Assembly: GCA_032718475.1 (NCBI GenBank)
Contig: JAUCBJ010001846.1
Location: forward strand, 186,001 to 250,000
Direction: 5' to 3'
Length of the DNA: 64,000 nt
Source: Nemertoderma westbladi
Lineage: Eukaryota > Animalia > Xenacoelomorpha
Shown here: piece by piece, positions 10,956 through 52,307 of the stretch
How the letters are laid out: each line of letters opens with the position of its first letter
Numbering within the stretch: position 1 is the stretch's first letter
Notes under the pieces: generated by a model
Databases searched by the model: none
What the model saw: the letters and a program-made list of their open reading frames with translations, nothing else
Told to the model about the DNA's origin: nothing
Position numbers and translations under genes: made by a program

Positions 10956-11640
10956 CTATTTTTTGTAAGGTAGCATTGTGTTTAGGGCATCAATATGTTC
11001 TTGCAATTGGGCTTTAATCGTACAATTTATAGAGTCTAGTATGAATTCAATACCTTCTCGTCTGGCTAATTTTGATGCAGAAACAAAGTCACTATCACCT
11101 GAAATAAGAACAATCTTTTCAACAATTTTTTTGTAGGCGAGCGTGGCAACATCCAAACCGACTTTCATATCAACGCCTTTTTGAGACGCATGGCATATCA
11201 CGTCTGACTCAGACAACGCTTGAATTGTTGATCGACCTGAGTGTAATGCTTTTTTTCTTAGTATCTTTGATTTTCCGGCGTGCGTTTTGATCGTCAAGAC
11301 GCTCCAATCGTAACGCCATGTTTCGGGTTGGGAGAAGTTGTTCATGTAAAGAATTTTGAAAAATGTAAAGCTTACTTTTTCCCAGATCGATGGGTTTTTT
11401 ACTCAATGGGTGTTCTAGCTTTTTATTCAAAGGCGGGAAGGGTAAAGAAGATTAGATATAAGCGGTCTTCCCCTCCTTCTGATCATCTTTACCCTTCCCA
11501 TTTCTCACATGCTTCAAACACAATGTGTGACTAAATTTTTTTCAACCTTTTGGGGTTCGTCCAAAGTGTGGAAGTGTTTTTTATAACCTTTAAGATAGAA
11601 ATCGCCGTCAACTACGATGGCCATATTTCTTTTTGATATA
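10956..11640 (-). pseudogene. NYN (LabA/DUF88, PIN-fold) domain protein, multiply frameshifted
   Basis: Fragments MAIVVDGDFYLK (ATG 11624), PLNKKLEHPLSKKPIDLGKS..ALRL and QKGVDMKVGLDVA..IVLISGDSDFV.A.KLARREGIEFILD lie in different frames. Confidence 0.8.
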
Positions 11641-23854: not shown

Positions 23855-26137
23855 ATGACATTTTCACACCGTATTTTTCAATTTCTTAAAGCGCTCACGG
23901 CTATATTGTTTTGTGGGTTTTTTCCTGTTCAGTTATTGGCGGTGGATGTACCTGCGACAATGACGATAACTACTAGTAATGCAGGTGATCTGCTGAGTAG
24001 TGCAATATTTCATGACATCAGCCGTGATGGGAAGGTGGTGGTAGGTAATCATAATGGTAGTGCGCTTCATTTTGCTTTAGCGGATAGCGCTCCCACAGGA
24101 ACAATAACAGCCCTACCCAGTACCCTAGGCCAAACTAGCTCAGGCGCATATGCCACCAATCAAGATGGTAGTGTGATTGTAGGCTGGGCTCATAATATTC
24201 ATGGGAGAAAAAAAGCCTTTCGCTTGGAAACTACCCCCAATAACCCAAGCAACGCAGGCATGCAAAACTTAAGTTCAGCGTCGCCAAATGATTCAGAAGC
24301 CTTAAACGTTAGTGCCGATGGCAATGTGGTGGTGGGTTGGTCACATAAAGCTGACTGGTCTGAGAATGCGTTTCGCTGGCGGGCGGATATTGGTATGCAA
24401 GAGTTAGATATGAGTTCAATACTTTACAATCCTGCCTACTACTCAGAAATAAATAAAAAATCAAGAGCCTTGGCCGCCAGTGAGGATGGCAAGTCCATTG
24501 TGGGTTATGTACGCACTGTTGGCGTGAACGGAAATCTTGTGCAGGGAACAACGTTTCCCACCCACAAACAAACCTCGATCGAGAGAGAGTTACTTGCCTT
24601 TTTTTGGCGCGAAGATCCTTTTGATAATACAAAGGGAACGGTGTACACGTTGACCAACACCATTGGGAATATTGAAGATCAATCCGTTGCCTATGACATC
24701 AGCTCTGATGGTAAGGTCATTGTGGGCTGGGCCTATAACAGAGCCTTGGGAAATGACAGAGCCTTTCGCTGGGTATTAGCTGATGCTACTGATCCGCATA
24801 GCTCTGCAGGTATGGAAAATTTAGGTGCAATAAATTTAACGCTTGGCTCAAGAGCCTATGGCGTTAATGGGGATGGAACAGTGATTGTGGGTCAAACAAT
24901 TAATTCTCTCAATATTTCAATAGGCTTTCGCTGGGAAGAAGGTGGCGGAATAGAATATGTTGGAAATTGGCTTATTCGTAAGGGTATAAATCCAGCAGAT
25001 GTTTACAATTTGAATGATGCAATCGCTGTCTCCAACGATGGCAACACCATTATAGGTACAGAATACATCGCGCGTTTCGTCCCCACCAGCACAATCGTAT
25101 CCCCACCACCCGTTGATCCAGTTGATCCACCACCAACCACCATAACAAACCCCGCCCCCAACGCCGGCCAAGCCGCTGCTATCAGCATGTCAGCCTCTCG
25201 CGAGGCCAGCTTTTTCATTGCAAGCGGCCTGTTATATGCCCTAGCTAATGATGCGTTTGATGGTTTTTTCCTCCCGCCTTTTTGTGATGATGAGGATGAA
25301 AACAACAAACGACACGCCTCCATCCACCTATTGGGTCAGCTGGATAAAGAAAAAGAAGATTGCTTTAATGCATCAAGGCATTCAAACGGTGCTTATCAAC
25401 TCAGTTTTAATCACCAAAGCTCACAAGGTTTGAGTTATGGTTTGGGCTTTAATGTTGGAAAAACGCAACATCAATTGGCGAATTTGGCCTTTAATTCAAG
25501 TGCGAACCGCCCCGAGTTTTCTGCCCATATTCGCACCCCTATTTTGCCCAACACCTACCTCACGTTATCAGCCAATCAGCATGATCGAGCCTATCAAATT
25601 CATCGTCATTCCATCAAAGGGGTCGAAAATGCCCATGGATCGCTCAGCGCACAAGGGCAAACCTACAATGCCTTGCTAACCCACCCGTTTAGTATTGGGG
25701 ATATTCGTTTTTCACCGATGCTGGGTTTGAGCTACCAACAATTAAATATTTCAGCTTATGATGAGCGCACCAGTCGAGCTGTTTTCCCTTTTCATCTATC
25801 CGCTGGCCATAACAACGTTATGCGAGCGCAAGCAGGTATACAGGCCAAAGTTGCTTTGAGCCAGTTGACAAAACTCTCCCTTAAATTTAATGCACTACAA
25901 GACATTCATCGCGACATAAGCCCCATCAATGCCAGTGCAGGGGGGTTCACCATGCTTAGTAATTTTGATCCAAACGCTGTATTGGACGATCAAGATTATG
26001 CCACGGCTTTGAATTTGAACTTCACTCATCGCGTTGATCAGCATCATCGGCTTGGGTTTAATGTTGAGTTGAAAAATCCGTTTTATCAGCAGGGCAATGA
26101 GTTTCAAGTAAGCCTTGAGCAGGTTATTGAGTTTTAA
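23855..26137 (+). CDS. Autotransporter-like outer membrane protein with HAF-type beta-propeller repeats
   Basis: Signal peptide; repeats S.A...S.DG.VIVGW....AFRW; Pro-rich linker (PPPVDPVDPPP); beta-barrel-like C-terminus (FSPMLGLSY....AYDE) ending in F. Confidence 0.8.
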   Translation: MTFSHRIFQFLKALTAILFCGFFPVQLLAVDVPATMTITTSNAGDLLSSAIFHDISRDGKVVVGNHNGSALHFALADSAPTGTITALPSTLGQTSSGAYATNQDGSVIVGWAHNIHGRKKAFRLETTPNNPSNAGMQNLSSASPNDSEALNVSADGNVVVGWSHKADWSENAFRWRADIGMQELDMSSILYNPAYYSEINKKSRALAASEDGKSIVGYVRTVGVNGNLVQGTTFPTHKQTSIERELLAFFWREDPFDNTKGTVYTLTNTIGNIEDQSVAYDISSDGKVIVGWAYNRALGNDRAFRWVLADATDPHSSAGMENLGAINLTLGSRAYGVNGDGTVIVGQTINSLNISIGFRWEEGGGIEYVGNWLIRKGINPADVYNLNDAIAVSNDGNTIIGTEYIARFVPTSTIVSPPPVDPVDPPPTTITNPAPNAGQAAAISMSASREASFFIASGLLYALANDAFDGFFLPPFCDDEDENNKRHASIHLLGQLDKEKEDCFNASRHSNGAYQLSFNHQSSQGLSYGLGFNVGKTQHQLANLAFNSSANRPEFSAHIRTPILPNTYLTLSANQHDRAYQIHRHSIKGVENAHGSLSAQGQTYNALLTHPFSIGDIRFSPMLGLSYQQLNISAYDERTSRAVFPFHLSAGHNNVMRAQAGIQAKVALSQLTKLSLKFNALQDIHRDISPINASAGGFTMLSNFDPNAVLDDQDYATALNLNFTHRVDQHHRLGFNVELKNPFYQQGNEFQVSLEQVIEF

Positions 26138-27097: not shown

Positions 27098-28140
27098 ATG
27101 AGAATAGAAGCCATTGGACTTAGCCTGCCCACGTGGCAGGTGTCAAACGAAGAGGTGATCGATTACATCAAACACCATTCAAAACCCGTGTTTTCGGGTG
27201 ATTTAGATAAAACCTTGAGAAAAATCTCTATTTTACTTAAAAAAACAGGGGCGAAAAATCGCTACTGGCTGAATCGCTAAAAAGGTGAACGCCCCATTGG
27301 CCATATTATAAAAGCAGCGGAAAGTGCGCTTGCCCAAAGCGTGTTTGAAAAAGGCGATATCGACCTATTAGTCTATGTGGGCATTGGCAAAGGCTTTATT
27401 GAACCGGGTAACAGTTATTTAGTGGCCCAAGCCTTGGGCATGGATAAAGTACGCTGTTTTGACCTCACCGATGCGTGTATGAGCTGGACAGCGACCACAC
27501 AAATTATTGACAGCCTATTTAAAACCAAAGCCTATCAAAATGCCATGATTGTCAATGGGGAATTTATCGTACATGGGGGGCATTGTTTAAAAATTATGCC
27601 TTAACAAATGAGGATCAACTGCCTTACACCTTCCCCAGCTTTACGGTGGGCGAGGCAGCCACCTGCACCCTTTTAAGCCCCACGGATCCGGCTAATTTTG
27701 AATTTAAGTTTTCATCACGCGCCGATTTGGCCGATTTATGCGTCATCCCCACTCAAGAATTTAAAGATTATTGTGAAATAACAGAAAAAACCGCCACCCT
27801 AGGGGCGGATCGGTTTACCTCCTATGGGTTTGATTTGCATAAAACAGCAGAAGTTGAAGCGGTTAAATTATTTAAATTATTATCGCTTGAGCGCGACCGT
27901 GTTGATATTGTATTCACCCATGCCTCCGCTCAATCAGAGTGGCATAAATACGGCCAAAAGGTGGGCATGAATCAAAAAATTTATCATATTTACCCCCAAA
28001 CGGGCAATTTAATCTCCGCTTCCATTCCCGCGGCCATGGCCTTGGCGAAAAATGAGGGGGCATTAAAAAAAGATGATCAGGTGTTATCATGGGTGGGCAG
28101 TGCGGGCATGTCGTTTAGTGCCTGCCTTCATCAGTTTTAG
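27098..28140 (+). pseudogene. OleA/KAS III-like (thiolase-fold) condensing enzyme, with one nonsense codon and one frameshift
   Basis: Joined frames give about 347 aa with FIEP, FDLTDAC, FTVGEAA, VFTHAS, GNLISASIP and GSAG. TAA at 27278-27280; -1 in G6 run 27575-27580. Confidence 0.85.
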
Positions 28141-28158
28141 ATAACCTTAGGAGGAGGG

Positions 28159-29405
28159 GTGATTTGGTCATGGTTTAAAAGGGTTGTATCTTATGATGCT
28201 AAGGTTTCGCGCTTCAATATTATTACACTTGGTATTGTTGGGTTTTTCGGCCACCCTTTGTATTGGACGATTTGGACATATCTATTCCCCCAACCGTACG
28301 ATAGCGCCGCCTTACGCTTTTTGGGAGCATTGGTGTGCTTCTTTTTTATCATCAAAGATGACTGGCCCAAGCCCTTAAAGCCCTATTTTCCGTGGTATTG
28401 GTTTTGGGGTGTTTCGTATGTTTTGCCCTTTATTTTCACCGTTCATTTAGTGATGAATGACTTTTCCACCATTTGGCTCATGTGTCAGGTGGTTATGATT
28501 TTTATAGTCGCAATTTTCACGTCTAATTTTTTTTAATGCTGGTCAGCATAACTTTAGGTGTTATAGGGGCAGCTCTATATTGTGCGTTGCTCTACCCTGA
28601 GAAAGTATTTTTCAGTGTGGAATATATTCAATACATCCCAATATTTATTTTTGGAATATTTTTTGGTTATTTGTTTAGTCATAATAATGCCAGAGGATTC
28701 TTTTTTGAGGCCAAAACCCACCTCCTAAAAGCCTTGGCCGGCTCCATTGCGCATGACACCAAAGCCCCCATTGCCAACATTAGCCTAGCACAGGCTTTGA
28801 TTGATGATCATTTAAAAAAAGATAATTATCACAATCCAACCGTTTTAAAAATGATTGAAGCGATTAAATATTCCGCCAACAATGCGCTGACAGTGATCAA
28901 TGTGTTGCTTGAAAACATTCGCACCCAAAAGATTAATACCAGCAGTTTTAAACCCATCAACATCAACCAAGCCATTGACAATACCCTAACCCTGTACCCT
29001 TTTTGGGATAAACAGCGCGAACAAATAAGCGTTGAGATTGAGCAGGATTTTGACTTTTTAGGCTCAGCGGTATTGTTTCAGTACGTGTTATTTAACTTGC
29101 TGAAAAATGCCTTGTATCATCAGGGTGATTCAATCACCATAACGGCTGTAAGCAACAAAACGGATAACGTACTCTTTTTTAAAGACACAGGTGGTGGCAT
29201 TGACCCTGATAAAATAGGGCGCATATTTGATGATTTTATGACCACCAGCAAAACCGAGGGCACAGGCTTGGGGCTACCCTTTTGCAAACGGGTCATGCAT
29301 GCTTTTGGTGGGGATATTACATGCCACTCTACAAAAAGTGAGTATGCTGAATTTAGACTTTCTTTTCCCAAAAAACCTACAACTGAGCCACATATCAGGG
29401 AATGA
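28159..29405 (+). pseudogene. CqsS/LqsS-family membrane sensor histidine kinase without receiver domain, single frameshift
   Basis: GHPLYW.IW.YLFPQPYD...LR, LPFIF...MNDFSTIW, YIPIFIFG, H-box AGSIAHD, NLLKNALY, DTGGGI and GLGLPFCKRVM.AFGG. One extra T in T8 (28527-28534) gives about 415 aa. AGGAGG RBS. Confidence 0.85.
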
Positions 29406-33753: not shown

Positions 33754-34777
33754 TTATAGGTGCCTTCTGGCTGGATTTTGTTGATCCATTCTTGACAATA
33801 TTTTCGACCTGCTTGGATTGATTGGCCACATCAATATGTGCTTTGCGTTCGTTTTCATATACAGTTTCGCAGACATTGATGTGTAGTTGTGCGAACCTGA
33901 AATGAAGTATACCAAAACCGATTTGAATTCGGACTCATCTTTTGGGCTGTTTAAATACAATTGAAAGGCTTTTTCGTAAGCATACTGGGCTTGGACATAT
34001 TCCTGAAGTCTTTGGTAGTCAATCCCCTTTTTGATGCAGTATTCAGCATCTTTTTCAACAATACGGTGGGCGGTGTTGTTGCAAGTGGAAAAGCCGTCGA
34101 TATCTTGAAACAGGGTGCGCTCATGAATGTTAAATAATTGTTGTAATTCTTGTTTAATTTGGGGTTTATGGCCTGCCTTAATGTTTAGTGTTTTAAAAGG
34201 TTTAAGGGGTTGGTTGGTTAAAATAAACACCCCTTTTTGGGCAAATAAACGTTGGGTGCTTTTAAAGGTGGGTTGAATATACGTAGGATTTTTTGCCGCA
34301 CTTTCTAATATGTTACCTGCAGTTACCTATGATTTCTTGAAGTGCCTTCATAGGGGTAGTATCCATCATCAATAGCTTTCCGTCACGTTCTTGGTCGCCT
34401 TGGCAGGCAAAATAAAGCGCCACTAAACAATCGGTTGAAAAATCAATCAGCCCTGTGGCCGTACCATCATGTTGAAGTTCGACCAGTATTTCAATATCTT
34501 TTAAGTTTTGATCACTTTGGTAGTGGTGGTCTTTTACCTCATTTAATAAATCGAGGTGGTAGTCGATAAATGCTTCCTTGCTGGGGGTTTGTTTTTCTTG
34601 GTCTTCCCTTCCTAGGTTAAAACGCCGATAATAGGTACTTTCAAGTGTCCACACAGCATTAAATTGCCCGCGATAAATCCATGCGCTACCTAAAGCCAAA
34701 GGGTTTTGTGAGTCGTTATTAGTCGCTTCAGATAATTGGGCTAGGTAGTTTGCAACCATACTCATATTATTTTTCAT
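33754..34777 (-). pseudogene. FRG-domain protein with TPR-like C-terminus, frameshifted
   Basis: YRGQ, LQHDG..T.LIDFS....VALYFAC, then in another frame QRLFAQKGVF and LF.DIDGF. Break at a duplicated GTTACCT (34312-34328). Confidence 0.8.
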
Positions 34778-38833: not shown

Positions 38834-39816
38834 ACGATTCCATCCAAAGTGATGTCACGTGTTTTGATTCATCCTTCACCCATTTTTTAACCACTAAGGG
38901 GGTAACAATTGGTGAAGTTGAAAAAATTTTACACCTCGCACAGTCTTTTTTTGATCCCAACAGTAACACCTTAAAAAAAGTACCCTTGTTACGGGGCTTG
39001 ACTGTGGCCACGTTATTTTTTGAACCCAGTACGCGCACAAGAACCACCTTTGAGTTAGCGGCCAAAAGGCTTTCAGCTGATGTCCTCAATATTGATATTG
39101 GTTATTCATCCAGCAAAAAAGGCGAAACGTTATTAGACACGGTGCGTAATTTAGAAGCCATGCAGGTCAATATGCTAGTGGTTCGTCATTTTGAAGGCGG
39201 TGCACCACATTTTTTAGCTCAACAGGTTGGCAAAAATGTATCGATCATTAATGCAGGTGATGGTTGTCACCAACACCCCACCCAAGCACTTTTAGATGCC
39301 CTAACCATTGCCCAACACAAAGGGGGGTTTAGTAAGTTGGTTATTGCAATTTTGGGGGATGTTGAACATTCCCGTGTTGCACGTTCCCAGCTGCATGTTT
39401 TTTTAGGCTTGGGGGTTAAGCAAATCAGAATTGTAGGGCCTAGTACACTTTTTAGCGCACACACACTAGATCGGCGCATCAAACATTTTAGTTGTGTGGA
39501 AGAAGGCTTAGCAGGCGTGGATGTGGTGATTGTACTTCGCTTACAAAAAGAGCGCATGGTGCACACCTATTTGCCTAGTTTTGAAGAATACTTTAAGTTT
39601 TTTGGCTTAACGAAGAAGCGATTATCTTATGCCAAGCCCGATGCCATTGTGATGCACCCAGGGCCAGTTAATCGATCGGTTGAAATTGTATCAAACATTG
39701 TTGATGGCACACGTTCGGTCATATTAGAACAAGTAACCAACGGCATTGCTGTTCGCATGGCCGTGATGGCCTTGCTTGCTCAGTCTCAATCAGCAAAAAA
39801 GCGTGATGCAGTATAA
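38830..39816 (+). CDS. pyrB: Aspartate carbamoyltransferase catalytic subunit
   Basis: FFEPSTRT, NAGDG.HQHPTQALLD and MHPGP.NR. Confidence 0.97.
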   Translation: MNDSIQSDVTCFDSSFTHFLTTKGVTIGEVEKILHLAQSFFDPNSNTLKKVPLLRGLTVATLFFEPSTRTRTTFELAAKRLSADVLNIDIGYSSSKKGETLLDTVRNLEAMQVNMLVVRHFEGGAPHFLAQQVGKNVSIINAGDGCHQHPTQALLDALTIAQHKGGFSKLVIAILGDVEHSRVARSQLHVFLGLGVKQIRIVGPSTLFSAHTLDRRIKHFSCVEEGLAGVDVVIVLRLQKERMVHTYLPSFEEYFKFFGLTKKRLSYAKPDAIVMHPGPVNRSVEIVSNIVDGTRSVILEQVTNGIAVRMAVMALLAQSQSAKKRDAV

Positions 39817-41035
39817 AGCAATATTAATTCAGTCAATTCAAGTATTTAATGCGGCGACTCAGTCGCTAGAATTAAAAGATATTTATGTTGAAAATGGGCA
39901 TATTCAGTCGCTAGATCAGCGCAAGGTACTTGATGATTGTTTGGTGATAAGCGGCGAGTCTCGCATCGCCATGCCAAGGCTGGTGGATTACTCGGCTAAG
40001 ATCGAATCATTTGATCAGCTTAAACCATTAAACAAAACGCTCCAATCAGCTGGGGTGGGGACAACTTATGTTAATTTTAGCGTACAGGCATATCTGCAAC
40101 ACCAACATTTATTAAGTAGTTGGTCAAATAATCAAAGCAGTGATTGCTGCATTTTGCCTGTTTTACCCCTAGCAGAATCAGGTCAAATGTCTTCCATTTT
40201 ATCCCTTCAATTGGCGGGGGCTCGGGCATTTTCAAATGCAGGTGCATGTGGTTTAACTTTGAGTGCGATGATCAATATATTTCGTTATATTTCAGACACA
40301 AAGCTTCTTGTCATTATTGATGTAAGCCACCATGCTGAACACAAAGGTGCCCTTCATGCGGGTAACACGGCTTATTGGATGGGGGTAAAGCGTTCACCTA
40401 CCATTGAAGAAAGTATGTGGGTGAGCTATTACATTGAGCTAGCATTACTGACACAAGTACCCATTCATTTTCGATCCATTAGTGCTGCCCGTTCAGTTAA
40501 GCTAATCGAACAAGCCAAGGCATGTGGTATGAAGGTGAGCTGCGATACTTCAATTCTACATTTGCTCTTCACCGACCAACAAACCCAAGGGTTTGGTGAT
40601 TATTTTCGTATTCAACCCCCCCTTCGCTCATCCGCTGATCAGCTAGCCTTAATCGAAGGACTTCAAACTGGGGTGATTGACTCAATCAGCTCAATGCACG
40701 GGGCGGCCTCCTATAATGTGCTGTGTGCACAAAAACATTGGCAGGTGTTGGGGGATTTTTGGCCCCTAGTCTATCACCTTGTTTCGGCTAATCAGCTAAG
40801 TTTGGTACAAGCGATCAATTGTGTGACCCGTCGCCCAGTCACTTTGGTTACGGTGGTTGATGCACCAACCGTTGAAGTTGGTCAACCCGCTAGTTTTTGT
40901 ATTTTCAGCCCCACAGGCTCTCACCTAATCACATCATTGGTGCCAGAGGTGATAGAGAAAATTGGGCATGAGACACTAGCTGGTGGTTTGGTTGAATATG
41001 TAATCGCAGGTGGCTGTGTGTTTAGCCATGCGTAG
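39806..41035 (+). CDS. Dihydroorotase-like protein, probably inactive PyrC'
   Basis: Amidohydrolase fold (PPLRS..D..ALIEGL.TG.ID), but the metal-binding HxH is replaced by LVDYSAK; follows pyrB. Confidence 0.8.
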   Translation: MQYKAILIQSIQVFNAATQSLELKDIYVENGHIQSLDQRKVLDDCLVISGESRIAMPRLVDYSAKIESFDQLKPLNKTLQSAGVGTTYVNFSVQAYLQHQHLLSSWSNNQSSDCCILPVLPLAESGQMSSILSLQLAGARAFSNAGACGLTLSAMINIFRYISDTKLLVIIDVSHHAEHKGALHAGNTAYWMGVKRSPTIEESMWVSYYIELALLTQVPIHFRSISAARSVKLIEQAKACGMKVSCDTSILHLLFTDQQTQGFGDYFRIQPPLRSSADQLALIEGLQTGVIDSISSMHGAASYNVLCAQKHWQVLGDFWPLVYHLVSANQLSLVQAINCVTRRPVTLVTVVDAPTVEVGQPASFCIFSPTGSHLITSLVPEVIEKIGHETLAGGLVEYVIAGGCVFSHA

Positions 41036-49321: not shown

Positions 49322-50560
49322 GTGGGGTTTGAGCTTGCAACAAATGAGGTAAAATACCTCCCGCTTAGTTCTGACCGCTCATTACTTGATTGGGATATTA
49401 TTCTTTTTAGGGCAGATGACTACATTGCCAGTAGTGCTAATCACTGGCCGCTAGAAATAAATGATGCCCTTGAAATGGGGAAAATGGTCATTGCTTATCT
49501 TTGTGAGCAAACACCTAACTATTTAAATATTGAGAAAGTTGATTTTCGTAAGGGCAACTGCATCAAGCTTGCCACTACTAAGCACGCACAGATCATCGCC
49601 GATTATTGGGCTGAATTTGGTGAACTTTCAACCTATAAAGTTATTTTAGACAAAAACTGCGGCTCACCCATTCTGTTAACACAAAGTGGTGATAAAATTG
49701 TTGGTGGAATCAGAAAATTGCAATCAGGCAAGGGCACCATGCTGTTGTTGCCTGATATTGATTTTAATTTAGAAGGCTTCTCGGAAACTAACCTTGGTGG
49801 AAATTGGAAGGATAAAGCACATAATTTTTCATCAAAATTAATCAAACACATTGTTTCAATCCACAAGGCGCTCACTAGCAACTGCACACCACCAGAGTGG
49901 GTTACTAACCCAAATTATGTCTTACCAAAAGAAGACAAACTGCTTGCAAATTTAGAACAGGTCGAACAACAAATCAAAACACTCCAAATACAAAAAAATA
50001 AACTACAACCCACTATTAAAAAGGCGGGAAGATTACGCGGTTTGTTATATGAGAAAGGCAAAGCATTAGAGCTTGCCATCCTAGATGCCCTAAAAATTCT
50101 AGGTTTTAAGGCAGTTTCTTTTGAACAAGGTAACTTAGCGTTTGATGTGGTTTTTACCTCCCAAGAAGGTCGGTTTATTGGTGAAGCCGAAGGTAAAGAC
50201 CATAAAGCCATCAACATCGACAAATTTAGGCAGCTTGAATCAAATATTTCTCAAGACTTACAGCGCGATGAAGTTAAAACATCTGCCAAAGGGGTTTTAT
50301 TTGGTAATGCTTTTAGGCTTGCGCCAATACAAAATCGCGTGGATCCTTTTACTGAAAAATGTAAGGACTCATCCCAGAGAAACTCAACAGCATTGGTTTT
50401 TACACCTGATTTGTTTGTTGTGGTGTGGTACCTTTCTAGGTATGAAGATGCAGCCTTTGCAAAGCAATGCAGAGCTACTATTGCAAGTACAATTGGTTAC
50501 GTTTTGTTCCCTGAGATACCCAATAAAGGCAAAGCAGCTAAAGCGAAAAAAGAACTCTAA
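49322..50560 (+). CDS. Hypothetical protein with coiled coil and C-terminal PD-(D/E)xK-like nuclease motif
   Basis: LE.AI..AL..LGF...FDVVF......IGEAEGKD...I.IDK.RQL. Start codon uncertain. Confidence 0.6.
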   Translation: MGFELATNEVKYLPLSSDRSLLDWDIILFRADDYIASSANHWPLEINDALEMGKMVIAYLCEQTPNYLNIEKVDFRKGNCIKLATTKHAQIIADYWAEFGELSTYKVILDKNCGSPILLTQSGDKIVGGIRKLQSGKGTMLLLPDIDFNLEGFSETNLGGNWKDKAHNFSSKLIKHIVSIHKALTSNCTPPEWVTNPNYVLPKEDKLLANLEQVEQQIKTLQIQKNKLQPTIKKAGRLRGLLYEKGKALELAILDALKILGFKAVSFEQGNLAFDVVFTSQEGRFIGEAEGKDHKAINIDKFRQLESNISQDLQRDEVKTSAKGVLFGNAFRLAPIQNRVDPFTEKCKDSSQRNSTALVFTPDLFVVVWYLSRYEDAAFAKQCRATIASTIGYVLFPEIPNKGKAAKAKKEL

Positions 50561-50795: not shown

Positions 50796-52307
50796 ATGAA
50801 AAACCTTCTTAAATCGCTTGAAAAAGGCAAAGCACAGTTATCCGCTCACCCCTTTTACCACTGGGTGAAAACAAGCCCAATTCCCTTTGAAAAAAAGCTG
50901 ATGTTCATCCCCATCATGATCCACTTTGTGATGAACTTTCGAGACATGAACCGTTGGGTTATTCGCTTTGAAAACGACCAAAAAAACCCCTTTAAACAAA
51001 CCATCAACAACCACACCTTGGAAGATGAAACCCACTCCAAACTATTTTTAGAAGACTGGCACAAACTACATATGGACGATAAAACAAACTGGCAACCAAA
51101 AGACCTACTATGGTGGCTATTTTTAGCACCCAATACCGAAACCATCAGGCAATGCGGTGCAGAATATATTCGCCTAGCCGTCGAAGATAGAGGTGATCCC
51201 TTGGTTCGCTACGCCCATGCTGAAACGGTTGAAATATGTGGCCGTGTATTTTTTGAGTGCATATCGCCCTTGGCCGATGCCCTTGGTAAAGCAAAAAAAC
51301 TAAATTATCGCTACTTTGGCCTATATCACTTTGCGCGTGAAAAAGGCTCAATGATTGATTCAGAAGCCCTTTTCCACCAACAAACTCTGACTCTCACCCA
51401 ACAAAAACGCGCCCAAAATTTAGCTCATCGCATGTTTGAACTTTTTTTTATATTGCACGACGCCTTTTTTGACTACATTCAGCAATATGTCGAAACCAAC
51501 ACCTTGCCCCGCCCTTCTACTGCACCAAACATCCAAATTCAACCAATCACCAAAATTGAAGTACCAAACATTAAAACCGCCTTTCATCCCAATCAACAAA
51601 CCCTTCAAACACAGCTAAACAACTGCAAAAAAAAGGCCGAAGCCCACCCCTTTTATCAACACCTGCGAACAAATCCCCTACCCGCCAAACAAAAACTACA
51701 GCGCTTCATCCCCCTATGGGCGTTTGACATATTAGGCTATCGAGACCTAAACCAATACGGCTTTCGTTACCCAAACCCGCAAACCCACCTTGAGTACCAC
51801 ATCAACCAACAGGTGGATAACTTCATCACCCACAGCCAACTATTTTTAACCGACTGGGAAGCCTTGGGCATGGATAAAGCTCTATGTTGGGTGCCTAGCC
51901 AGCTGCTTGATTTTTTATACTTTGATCATGGCATGAACGTGCACCGAAAGCATTTAATTGGGTTTATGAAACTAGCCATTGAACATGATGATCCTGTTGA
52001 GCGGTTGTACTTCATTCAAGCCCTAGAGGCAAGCGGTGAAGCCTTTTTTAACGCTACTGCCACCCTGGCCAAAGCCTGTGAAAAAACCGACGGTATCGTA
52101 CTCAATTACCTAGGTAATCAACACAGCATTTATCACCCACATCCGCACGTGCAACCTTTAGAAATTTTACAAGACCAACCTATCAACAAACAGCAGTGTA
52201 CTCATATTCAAAAACTGATCGAAACCGTATTTCAAGCACTGGATCAAAACTTAAACCTATCTTTTGAGGCAGTCTTAACCAACAAATTTGCAATTCAATA
52301 CCACTAA
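50796..52307 (+). CDS. Tandem-domain heme-oxygenase-like diiron oxidase (AetD-like)
   Basis: Internal duplication (AHPFY, FIP, RD.N, HS.LFL.DW..L.MD, E..G..FF, NY...G..H). Domain 1 has NFRDMNR and INNHTLEDETH. Confidence 0.75.
   Translation: MKNLLKSLEKGKAQLSAHPFYHWVKTSPIPFEKKLMFIPIMIHFVMNFRDMNRWVIRFENDQKNPFKQTINNHTLEDETHSKLFLEDWHKLHMDDKTNWQPKDLLWWLFLAPNTETIRQCGAEYIRLAVEDRGDPLVRYAHAETVEICGRVFFECISPLADALGKAKKLNYRYFGLYHFAREKGSMIDSEALFHQQTLTLTQQKRAQNLAHRMFELFFILHDAFFDYIQQYVETNTLPRPSTAPNIQIQPITKIEVPNIKTAFHPNQQTLQTQLNNCKKKAEAHPFYQHLRTNPLPAKQKLQRFIPLWAFDILGYRDLNQYGFRYPNPQTHLEYHINQQVDNFITHSQLFLTDWEALGMDKALCWVPSQLLDFLYFDHGMNVHRKHLIGFMKLAIEHDDPVERLYFIQALEASGEAFFNATATLAKACEKTDGIVLNYLGNQHSIYHPHPHVQPLEILQDQPINKQQCTHIQKLIETVFQALDQNLNLSFEAVLTNKFAIQYH

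Follow-up and report, generated by a model that had tools for sequence, protein, structure and literature searches.

The 64-kb stretch of DNA analysed here (the window) appears to carry a broken copy of a conserved two-gene cassette, in which the gene of a stand-alone ketosynthase (KS) immediately precedes that of a CqsS-type sensor histidine kinase. Judging from the relatives of both proteins, we consider it likely that the KS makes a lipid signal and that the kinase senses it. The pairing is real, is conserved in alpha-, beta- and gammaproteobacteria, and is apparently undescribed. Both the receptor family and the enzyme family are known, and it is apparently their pairing that is new. This is of interest because a single chemistry and a single family of synthases have so far been linked to CqsS-type receptors, and with a second such family bacterial communication would gain a class of signals. 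The case for the cassette stands on its intact relatives, and the window copy is a decayed member.

The two genes have the same orientation, with the KS stop codon ending at position 28140 and the GTG start codon of the kinase at 28159, as an earlier sequence-only reading of this DNA had it when it described two co-oriented genes 18 bp apart. The motifs cited in that reading are all present, namely FIEP (E102), DAC (C127), FTH and GN in the KS, and FPQPYD..LR, LPF.F, MND.STIW and YIPIF.F in the kinase, which also has an H-box and an HATPase_c domain and has no receiver domain (Table 1). The absence of cqsA and of a response regulator from the window is likewise borne out. Pfam searches of 8 + 51 ORFs found no receiver-domain or CqsA-like gene within the 64 kb, and when two receiver domains and CqsA were compared with the window by tblastn, the best E value was 0.08. 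Promoter and terminator scans gave matches at chance level only, and no RNA run is among those listed as containing the stretch.

Table 1. Features of the gene pair, in window coordinates.
Feature	Positions	Strand	Basis
NocG/PpyS-family stand-alone ketosynthase gene, ~347 codons, broken	27098..28140	+	KAS III domains, homology, tree
In-frame TAA, ketosynthase codon 61	27278..27280	+	
Glu102 of the ketosynthase (equivalent to catalytic base E100 of NocG, E105 of PpyS and E117 of OleA)	27401..27403	+	numbering from PMC9486936 (in part), Table 1
Cys127, equivalent of the active-site nucleophile, ketosynthase	27476..27478	+	
G run, frameshift site of the ketosynthase	27575..27580	+	
His of the FTH motif (H275 equivalent), ketosynthase	27919..27921	+	
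Asn of the GN motif (N304 equivalent), ketosynthase	28006..28008	+	
AGGAGG, ribosome-binding-site-like, inside the 18-bp gap	28149..28154	+	
Broken gene of ~415 codons for a CqsS-type sensor histidine kinase with six helices and no receiver domain	28159..29405	+	
T run, frameshift site of the kinase, between helices 4 and 5 and upstream of the kinase core	28527..28534	+	
Phospho-acceptor His of the kinase; H-box HDTKA, HE[ML]RN in relatives	28752..28754	+	
HATPase_c domain of the kinase	29070..29375	+	Pfam E 1e-20

There are three lesions in the pair, a stop codon and a frameshift in the KS gene and a frameshift in the kinase gene. We read this as a pseudogene pair, and in the source genome the circuit is very likely dead. 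There is a slim chance that the lesions are sequencing or assembly errors and that the window copy, to which alone this question applies, is intact. Two of the three breaks do fall in homopolymer runs and the catalytic residues are retained despite the breaks, but the remaining break is a nonsense codon, the H-box of the kinase has drifted, and long housekeeping genes near the pair match at full length. The letters are also identical over the stretch in the only public run that has it (a 90-kb contig at depth 30), although this contig is not independent because it may itself be the source of the window sequence.

Upstream of the pair, at 23855-26137, a gene encodes a 760-amino-acid autotransporter that has HAF repeats. 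Elsewhere in the window, fragmentary accessory genes are found among intact housekeeping genes at 33754-34777, 1-783 and 10956-11345 (a split FRG-domain gene, a phage-tail remnant and a partial NYN domain). Gene order may point to a gammaproteobacterium as the source of this DNA. Three ORFs of 419, 412 and 503 amino acids (39776-41035, 49322-50560 and 50796-52307) have no Pfam match at E 0.01.

By homology, the window KS belongs with the NocG/PpyS head-to-head ketosynthases and is neither OleA nor FabH. With the C-terminal piece as query there are 113 relatives of ~345 amino acids, the best at 70% identity, and 81 of these were aligned. The window KS is 69% identical over two frames to the intact KS of locus L002 and, with X at the breaks, 42% identical to the NocG orthologue of the Trichormus noc cluster. 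A glutamate and a Cys-His-Asn triad are present on a KAS III fold (E102, C127 and the equivalents of H275 and N304), and all five cyanobacterial KSs examined have E100, C125 and N304. The spacing between Glu and Cys is 25 residues in NocG and in the window KS family and 24 in PpyS and PyrS. Burkholderia homologues sit outside the PpyS group according to PMC4578411, and the spacing in the KS is of the NocG type.

The synthase had been described as OleA-like on the strength of its sequence. The glutamate base and the fold agree with this, but the closest characterised enzyme is NocG, followed by PpyS and PyrS, and not OleA. The best full-length PDB sequence match is OleA (E 7e-32), and the fold is equally close to FabH and OleA (TM 0.79-0.82), with ~19-21% identity to either. 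The KS family scores 112 bits against a cut-off of 285 with the PRK09258 model, which we take to represent OleA, and 78 bits against 292 with TIGR00747 (fabH). At the position of the base, FabH has Phe87 whereas the window KS family has Glu.

In a tree of 83 thinned KSs (quick IQ-TREE without bootstrap, FabH outgroups, seven rows with too little flank omitted), 27 sensor-paired KSs including that of the window form one clade with a single unpaired KS (SH-aLRT 95). This clade adjoins the NocG clade (SH-aLRT 98) and is not inside it, in a tree that contains no authentic PpyS, PyrS or OleA sequences. As the sequence-only reading required of its proposed synthase, the KS stays apart from the FabH outgroups and falls far under both the FabH and the PRK09258 cut-offs. 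Three identities were considered and rejected. For FabH, the grounds were the score, Glu in place of Phe and the position in the tree. For OleA, they were the identity of ~19%, the score and the lack of conserved oleBCD-like neighbours. For the NocG clade sensu stricto, they were the separate neighbouring clade and NocH and NocF homologues at none of 81 paired loci. Of the 120 matches listed from a profile search based on distant relatives, none was named PpyS or PyrS. A search of 201 Xenorhabdus-family genomes matched only the starting genome, and a search of plasmids for an OleA outgroup found only FabH-like sequences and one other KS.

KS relatives that lack the sensor are often located beside a fatty acyl-AMP ligase-ACP gene and an ABC1-kinase/aminotransferase fusion gene, which is the nocuolin layout. 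NocH-like ligase and NocF genes are found at 34 and 40 of the 70 other loci, respectively, versus 0 of 81 paired loci. There are noc-like clusters with this gene content (ligase-ACP, KS and fusion) at L043, at many of L049-L080 and at L068, and their hosts are Nocardia, Streptomyces, Nonomuraea, Xenorhabdus and a planctomycete. Those of Nocardia have already been noted (PMC9486936, in part). At three further loci (L134:569-4495, L138 and L151), a KS of the NocG clade has the genes of a 7TM-GAF histidine kinase and of a receiver protein behind it, which is a separate recruitment of a NocG-type enzyme in front of a different receptor family. Two loci (L130:6001-10624 and L133:1721-5427) have two tandem KS paralogues before one receptor, and these possibly form a heterodimeric enzyme.

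The pairing was assessed at 160 loci, made up of the 80 best of 387 matches in genomes and the 80 best of 342 in metagenomes, and each locus was assigned to a KS clade by best match to the rows of the tree. There are 90 KSs of the sensor-paired clade among these best-matching loci, and a CqsS-type kinase is directly downstream in 86 of the 87 that can be assessed, the other three being too short. Split by source, this is the case at 44 of 45 genome loci and 42 of 45 metagenome loci. The sensor starts 0-177 bases downstream of the KS (profile start). KSs outside the clade are never followed by such a sensor (0 of 70, with 64 judged and six too short). Conservation of the gene neighbourhood, which the sequence-only reading had proposed as a check, is therefore upheld among these 160 loci.

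The 44 paired genome loci are from Paraburkholderia/Burkholderia (31), Ramlibacter, Hydrogenophaga, alphaproteobacteria (five), gammaproteobacteria (four) and unclassified records (two). The genes flanking the pair vary between loci, and adjacency persists with changing flanks from 81% down to 45% KS identity. One pair is found on a P. caribensis plasmid, where it is annotated merely as a KAS III domain protein and a response regulator. In 101 Paraburkholderia genomes there are 21 full-length KSs of the paired type, all of them directly before a receptor, along with one broken pair and two KSs of another cluster that lack a receptor. Both genes of the broken pair are frameshifted (L232:4361-7447), and it is located ~16 kb from the cqsA locus in genome G049. 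Among 400 gammaproteobacterial genomes, 33 have CqsS-type receptors, and of 30 receptor loci only that of the starting genome has a KS. Thus, KS pairing is a rare subclass of CqsS-type receptors. In Legionella, a KS is found in one of 60 genomes, unaccompanied by such a sensor, and the sensors are found in 33 of 59.

Intact copies of the pair are under purifying selection, with a median dN/dS of 0.05 for the KS and 0.14 for the sensor domain (66 pairs from 12 Paraburkholderia loci). The distances among KSs and among receptors are correlated (Mantel rho 0.53), with 10 of 23 splits shared in 26 pairs and three of 11 strong KS splits conflicting with the receptor tree. Linkage alone could produce this co-divergence, as adjacent genes co-diverge regardless of function. 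A receiver-kinase gene is located downstream of the pair at only 10 loci and an LqsR-like gene at two of 81, and the pair has no conserved output regulator.

The window kinase has a six-helix sensor homologous to CqsS and a core formed by the HisKA histidine and HATPase_c, which are the features of the CqsS/LqsS family. Its N-terminal half is 33% identical to V. campbellii CqsS over 97 amino acids and the remainder is 34% identical over 264, where the reference is called CqsS because cqsA adjoins its gene. There are six membrane-length helices in the AlphaFold model of the nearest intact relative (L085, pLDDT 91). A crude hydropathy scan gave only four of six, and the helix count thus rests on the alignment and the model. 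Searches of the PDB by sequence and by fold gave no solved structure of the CqsS type.

In the receptor tree (quick IQ-TREE without bootstrap), all 36 thinned KS-paired receptors are found in one clade of 49 rows (SH-aLRT 98-99). Outside this clade are the cqsA-linked receptors, those of Legionella called LqsS-like or LqsT-like from score band and length, and 28 of 28 receptors from the 400 gammaproteobacterial genomes. The clade does not equal a ligand, because its other rows include six unpaired, four KS-less and three reductase-paired receptors. Among the 70 complete paired kinases there are 57 long hybrids, three intermediate forms and 10 short ones like that of the window, two of which seem truncated. 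Hybrids that carry two receiver domains and probably an Hpt tail predominate, and ACD20572.1 of P. phytofirmans DSM 17436 is a close relative of the hybrid kinase. Thus, the claim that the sensor has no receiver domain holds for the window kinase but describes a minority form. The phospho-acceptor histidine is missing in three of the 36 KS-paired receptors (L082, L107 and L121).

Pocket positions, in V. cholerae numbering, were mapped via the V. campbellii sequence and anchored on H194. In CqsS, W104 and S107 act on the head group of the ligand and C170 on tail length (PMC3376566 and PMC3285556, both in part). Ser occupies the S107 position in 15 of the 16 cqsA-linked or LqsS-like receptors versus three of 36 KS-paired receptors. 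The next position is Glu, His or Gln in 30 of the 36 and in none of the 16, and a helix-1 His is present in 32 of the 36 and in two of the 16. KS-paired receptors have W104 in 25 cases and R in the other 11, and position 170 is Phe in 31 of 36, a residue that in Vibrio selects C8 tails (same sources, in part). From these residues we infer a pocket for a different head group and a short tail.

The KS-paired receptor is a separate paralogue from the receptor beside cqsA, both in the Paraburkholderia genomes and in the receptor tree. This result does not refute the sequence-only reading, which had named as a refutation a receptor that responds only to CAI-1/LAI-1 from a cqsA elsewhere. A cqsA above the family cut-off is found in 38 of 101 Paraburkholderia genomes, each ~2 kb from its own short receptor. 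Among the 21 paired genomes, 11 show no cqsA (their completeness is not given) and 10 have it as well. At the 81 paired loci cqsA is found once, there with its own receptor. At L112:722-5862, a cqsA-cqsS pair is located directly upstream of a KS-receptor pair, and the two receptors belong to different clades. There are five Paraburkholderia receptors of the KS-linked class without an intact KS, and at three of these part of the KS 3' end survives (E 1e-7, 4e-4 and 0.018), as would be expected after the loss of a signal maker.

There are 38 copies, assigned by score band, of a second class of receptor in the 101 Paraburkholderia genomes. At all six loci examined (L210:8307-9560, L222:5411-6637, L223, L224, L225 and L226:7631-8854), these follow a gene of ~400 amino acids that belongs to no Pfam family and is weakly acyl-ACP-reductase-like (TIGR04058 E 6e-6, with Atlas matches to Rossmann/AAR-like clusters). 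It is a candidate for a second new synthase. Heme-oxygenase-like genes (PF14518) are located directly upstream of CqsS-type receptors of different clades, at three Paraburkholderia loci (L227:8053-9163, L228:6281-7358 and L229, where a small upstream ORF looks GNAT-like by eye and has no Pfam match) and three tested gammaproteobacterial loci (L297, L298 and L299). Co-oriented methyltransferase or radical-SAM genes are found just upstream of other CqsS-type receptors (L208:6658-7572, L288:565-1485, L211:5377-6849 and L293:492-1496), and these may be further synthases or chance neighbours. Sister receptor classes with other predicted lipid-type enzymes support the logic of a synthase followed by its receptor.

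By analogy with NocG and PpyS, the KS would bind one acyl chain on its Cys, use the Glu as base, and condense two acyl thioesters of medium chain length head to head in a non-decarboxylative reaction. Since the cassette has neither a ligase nor a carrier protein, the acyl-ACP pool of housekeeping metabolism would supply the substrates. NocG (E100, C125, H275, N304) condenses hexanoyl-ACP with octanoyl-ACP, and the resulting C13 beta-keto acid loses CO2 to give 6-tridecanone. It is closest to PpyS, and it depended on its own ligase and on substrates tethered to ACP or SNAC (PMC9486936, in part). The acyl-CoA substrates suggested by the sequence-only reading must give way to acyl-ACP as the likelier choice, because NocG gave no product from two acyl-CoAs (same source, in part). 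On this analogy, we narrowly favour as the product a 2-alkyl-3-oxo acid, or the dialkyl ketone that forms from it by decarboxylation, an alkyl-pyrone is possible but doubtful, and the remaining probability falls to something other than these. CAI-1 is a C13 ketone (PMC3285556, in part), and the products of PpyS are signals (PMC4578411). On the model of CqsS, the membrane domain with its six helices would take up the product, which would shift the balance between kinase and phosphatase, and phosphate would pass to the receiver domains of the kinase itself or to a separate regulator. Several observations count against this account, namely that the cassette includes no ligase, tailoring or export gene and has no conserved output regulator, that some receptors lack the phospho-acceptor histidine, and that 31 of 44 genome loci (from the best 80 of 387 matches) are from Paraburkholderia/Burkholderia.

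Sensor genes frequently adjoin the genes under their control. The kinase might instead sense an outside cue, such as a host lipid or a foreign alpha-hydroxyketone, and control a KS whose product is an antibiotic or surface-active lipid and not a signal. This common arrangement of sensors and targets lends the idea some weight, as do the antimicrobial pseudopyronines made by PyrS (PMC4578411), the receptors without lqsA in many Legionella species (PMC8023197, in part) and the additional cqsA in 10 of the 21 paired Paraburkholderia genomes. We nevertheless find it unlikely, as each Paraburkholderia cqsA has its own receptor and the other 11 genomes show none, the pocket residues are unlike those of alpha-hydroxyketone receptors, and sister receptor classes are each located behind a different lipid-type enzyme. 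Moreover, the KS gene comes first in what looks like a single operon that contains no DNA-binding regulator, which is the layout of a synthase and its receptor (PMC3376566, in part).

It is quite unlikely that the pair is a gauge within the cell, in which the KS turns acyl-ACP into a membrane-soluble reporter and the cell's own kinase reads fatty-acid supply or confinement in a host. Retention of the receptor after loss of the KS in five Paraburkholderia genomes fits listening to a signal made by others, and the known ligands of the CqsS-type family are shared extracellular signals (PMC3285556, in part), even though the cassette has no export gene and many of the bacteria that carry it live as symbionts or probably inside cells (Rickettsiales, Ca. 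Thiosymbion). It is very improbable that the KS serves olefin synthesis as OleA does, or is a redundant FabH, and stands next to the kinase by inheritance with no functional link. The top PDB match and the shared fold invite this thought, but the low identity and bit scores given above oppose it, there are no conserved oleBCD-like neighbours, and the adjacency outlasts the change of flanking genes. Our preferred reading remains a KS that makes a lipid signal for the kinase beside it.

There is perhaps an even chance that the picture is broader. The six-helix fold of CqsS might be a general receptor for fatty-acyl signals, with alpha-hydroxyketones as one dialect and the cassette with a NocG-type KS as a new autoinducer class. 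At least two more classes (with acyl-ACP-reductase-like and heme-oxygenase-like synthases) would then exist, and up to three or more parallel CqsS-type channels of different chemistry per Paraburkholderia genome. A second synthase family would also provide a function for the PpyS-like enzymes of Burkholderia that had no assigned role in 2015 (PMC4578411), and it would suggest unrecognised partners for many so-called orphan receptors. Intact pairs are found in about one-fifth of sampled Paraburkholderia (21 of 101), a plant-associated culturable genus, and the proposal is thus directly testable.

The sequence-only reading knew of no description of this pairing, and we found no such paper among openly accessible full texts, to which subscription articles (the photopyrone paper of 2013 is one) do not belong. 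The supplement text of the NocG paper does not mention a histidine kinase, HATPase, response regulator, Burkholderia or Paraburkholderia, and that of the PpyS paper does not mention a kinase; in both, the neighbourhood figures are images and outside this scope. Burkholderia homologues of PpyS were placed in a second group with their role left open (PMC4578411) and were noted without a receptor in the consulted portion of PMC7154725. CqsS-type receptors are treated without a ketosynthase partner in the corresponding portions of PMC8023197 and PMC4821796.

The cassette resembles CqsA/CqsS of Vibrio, LqsA/LqsR/LqsS of Legionella and JqsA/JqsS in having a six-helix sensor kinase and an enzyme gene adjoining the receptor gene. 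W104, F162 and a bulky residue at 170 are mostly retained in KS-paired receptors. However, the partner is a thiolase-fold ketosynthase where these systems have a PLP enzyme, and the KS-paired receptors form a separate clade that has lost S107 and gained polar residues in helices 1 and 4. Unlike Lqs, the cassette has no LqsR, and in most members the kinase is a hybrid that bears two receiver domains and probably an Hpt tail. With OleA of oleABCD, the KS has in common the fold, the Cys-His-Asn triad and the Glu base, but it is ~19% identical, far below the family cut-off and without conserved oleBCD neighbours. PpyS/PluR and PyrS (PMC4578411; PMC7154725, in part) are alike as stand-alone head-to-head ketosynthases with a catalytic Glu, and the PpyS product is a signal, whereas their Glu-Cys spacing is 24 and not 25, a pyrone is a known product only there, and PluR is a LuxR solo where the receptor of the cassette is a membrane kinase. 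Among characterised enzymes, NocG from the nocuolin A cluster (PMC9486936, in part) is the nearest. It has the same 25-residue spacing and belongs to a sister clade, of which the Trichormus noc-cluster KS, with the E100/C125/N304 numbering of NocG, is 42% identical to the window KS, yet the cassette has none of the NocH ligase-ACP, the NocF aminotransferase or the tailoring genes of that cluster and carries a receptor gene instead.
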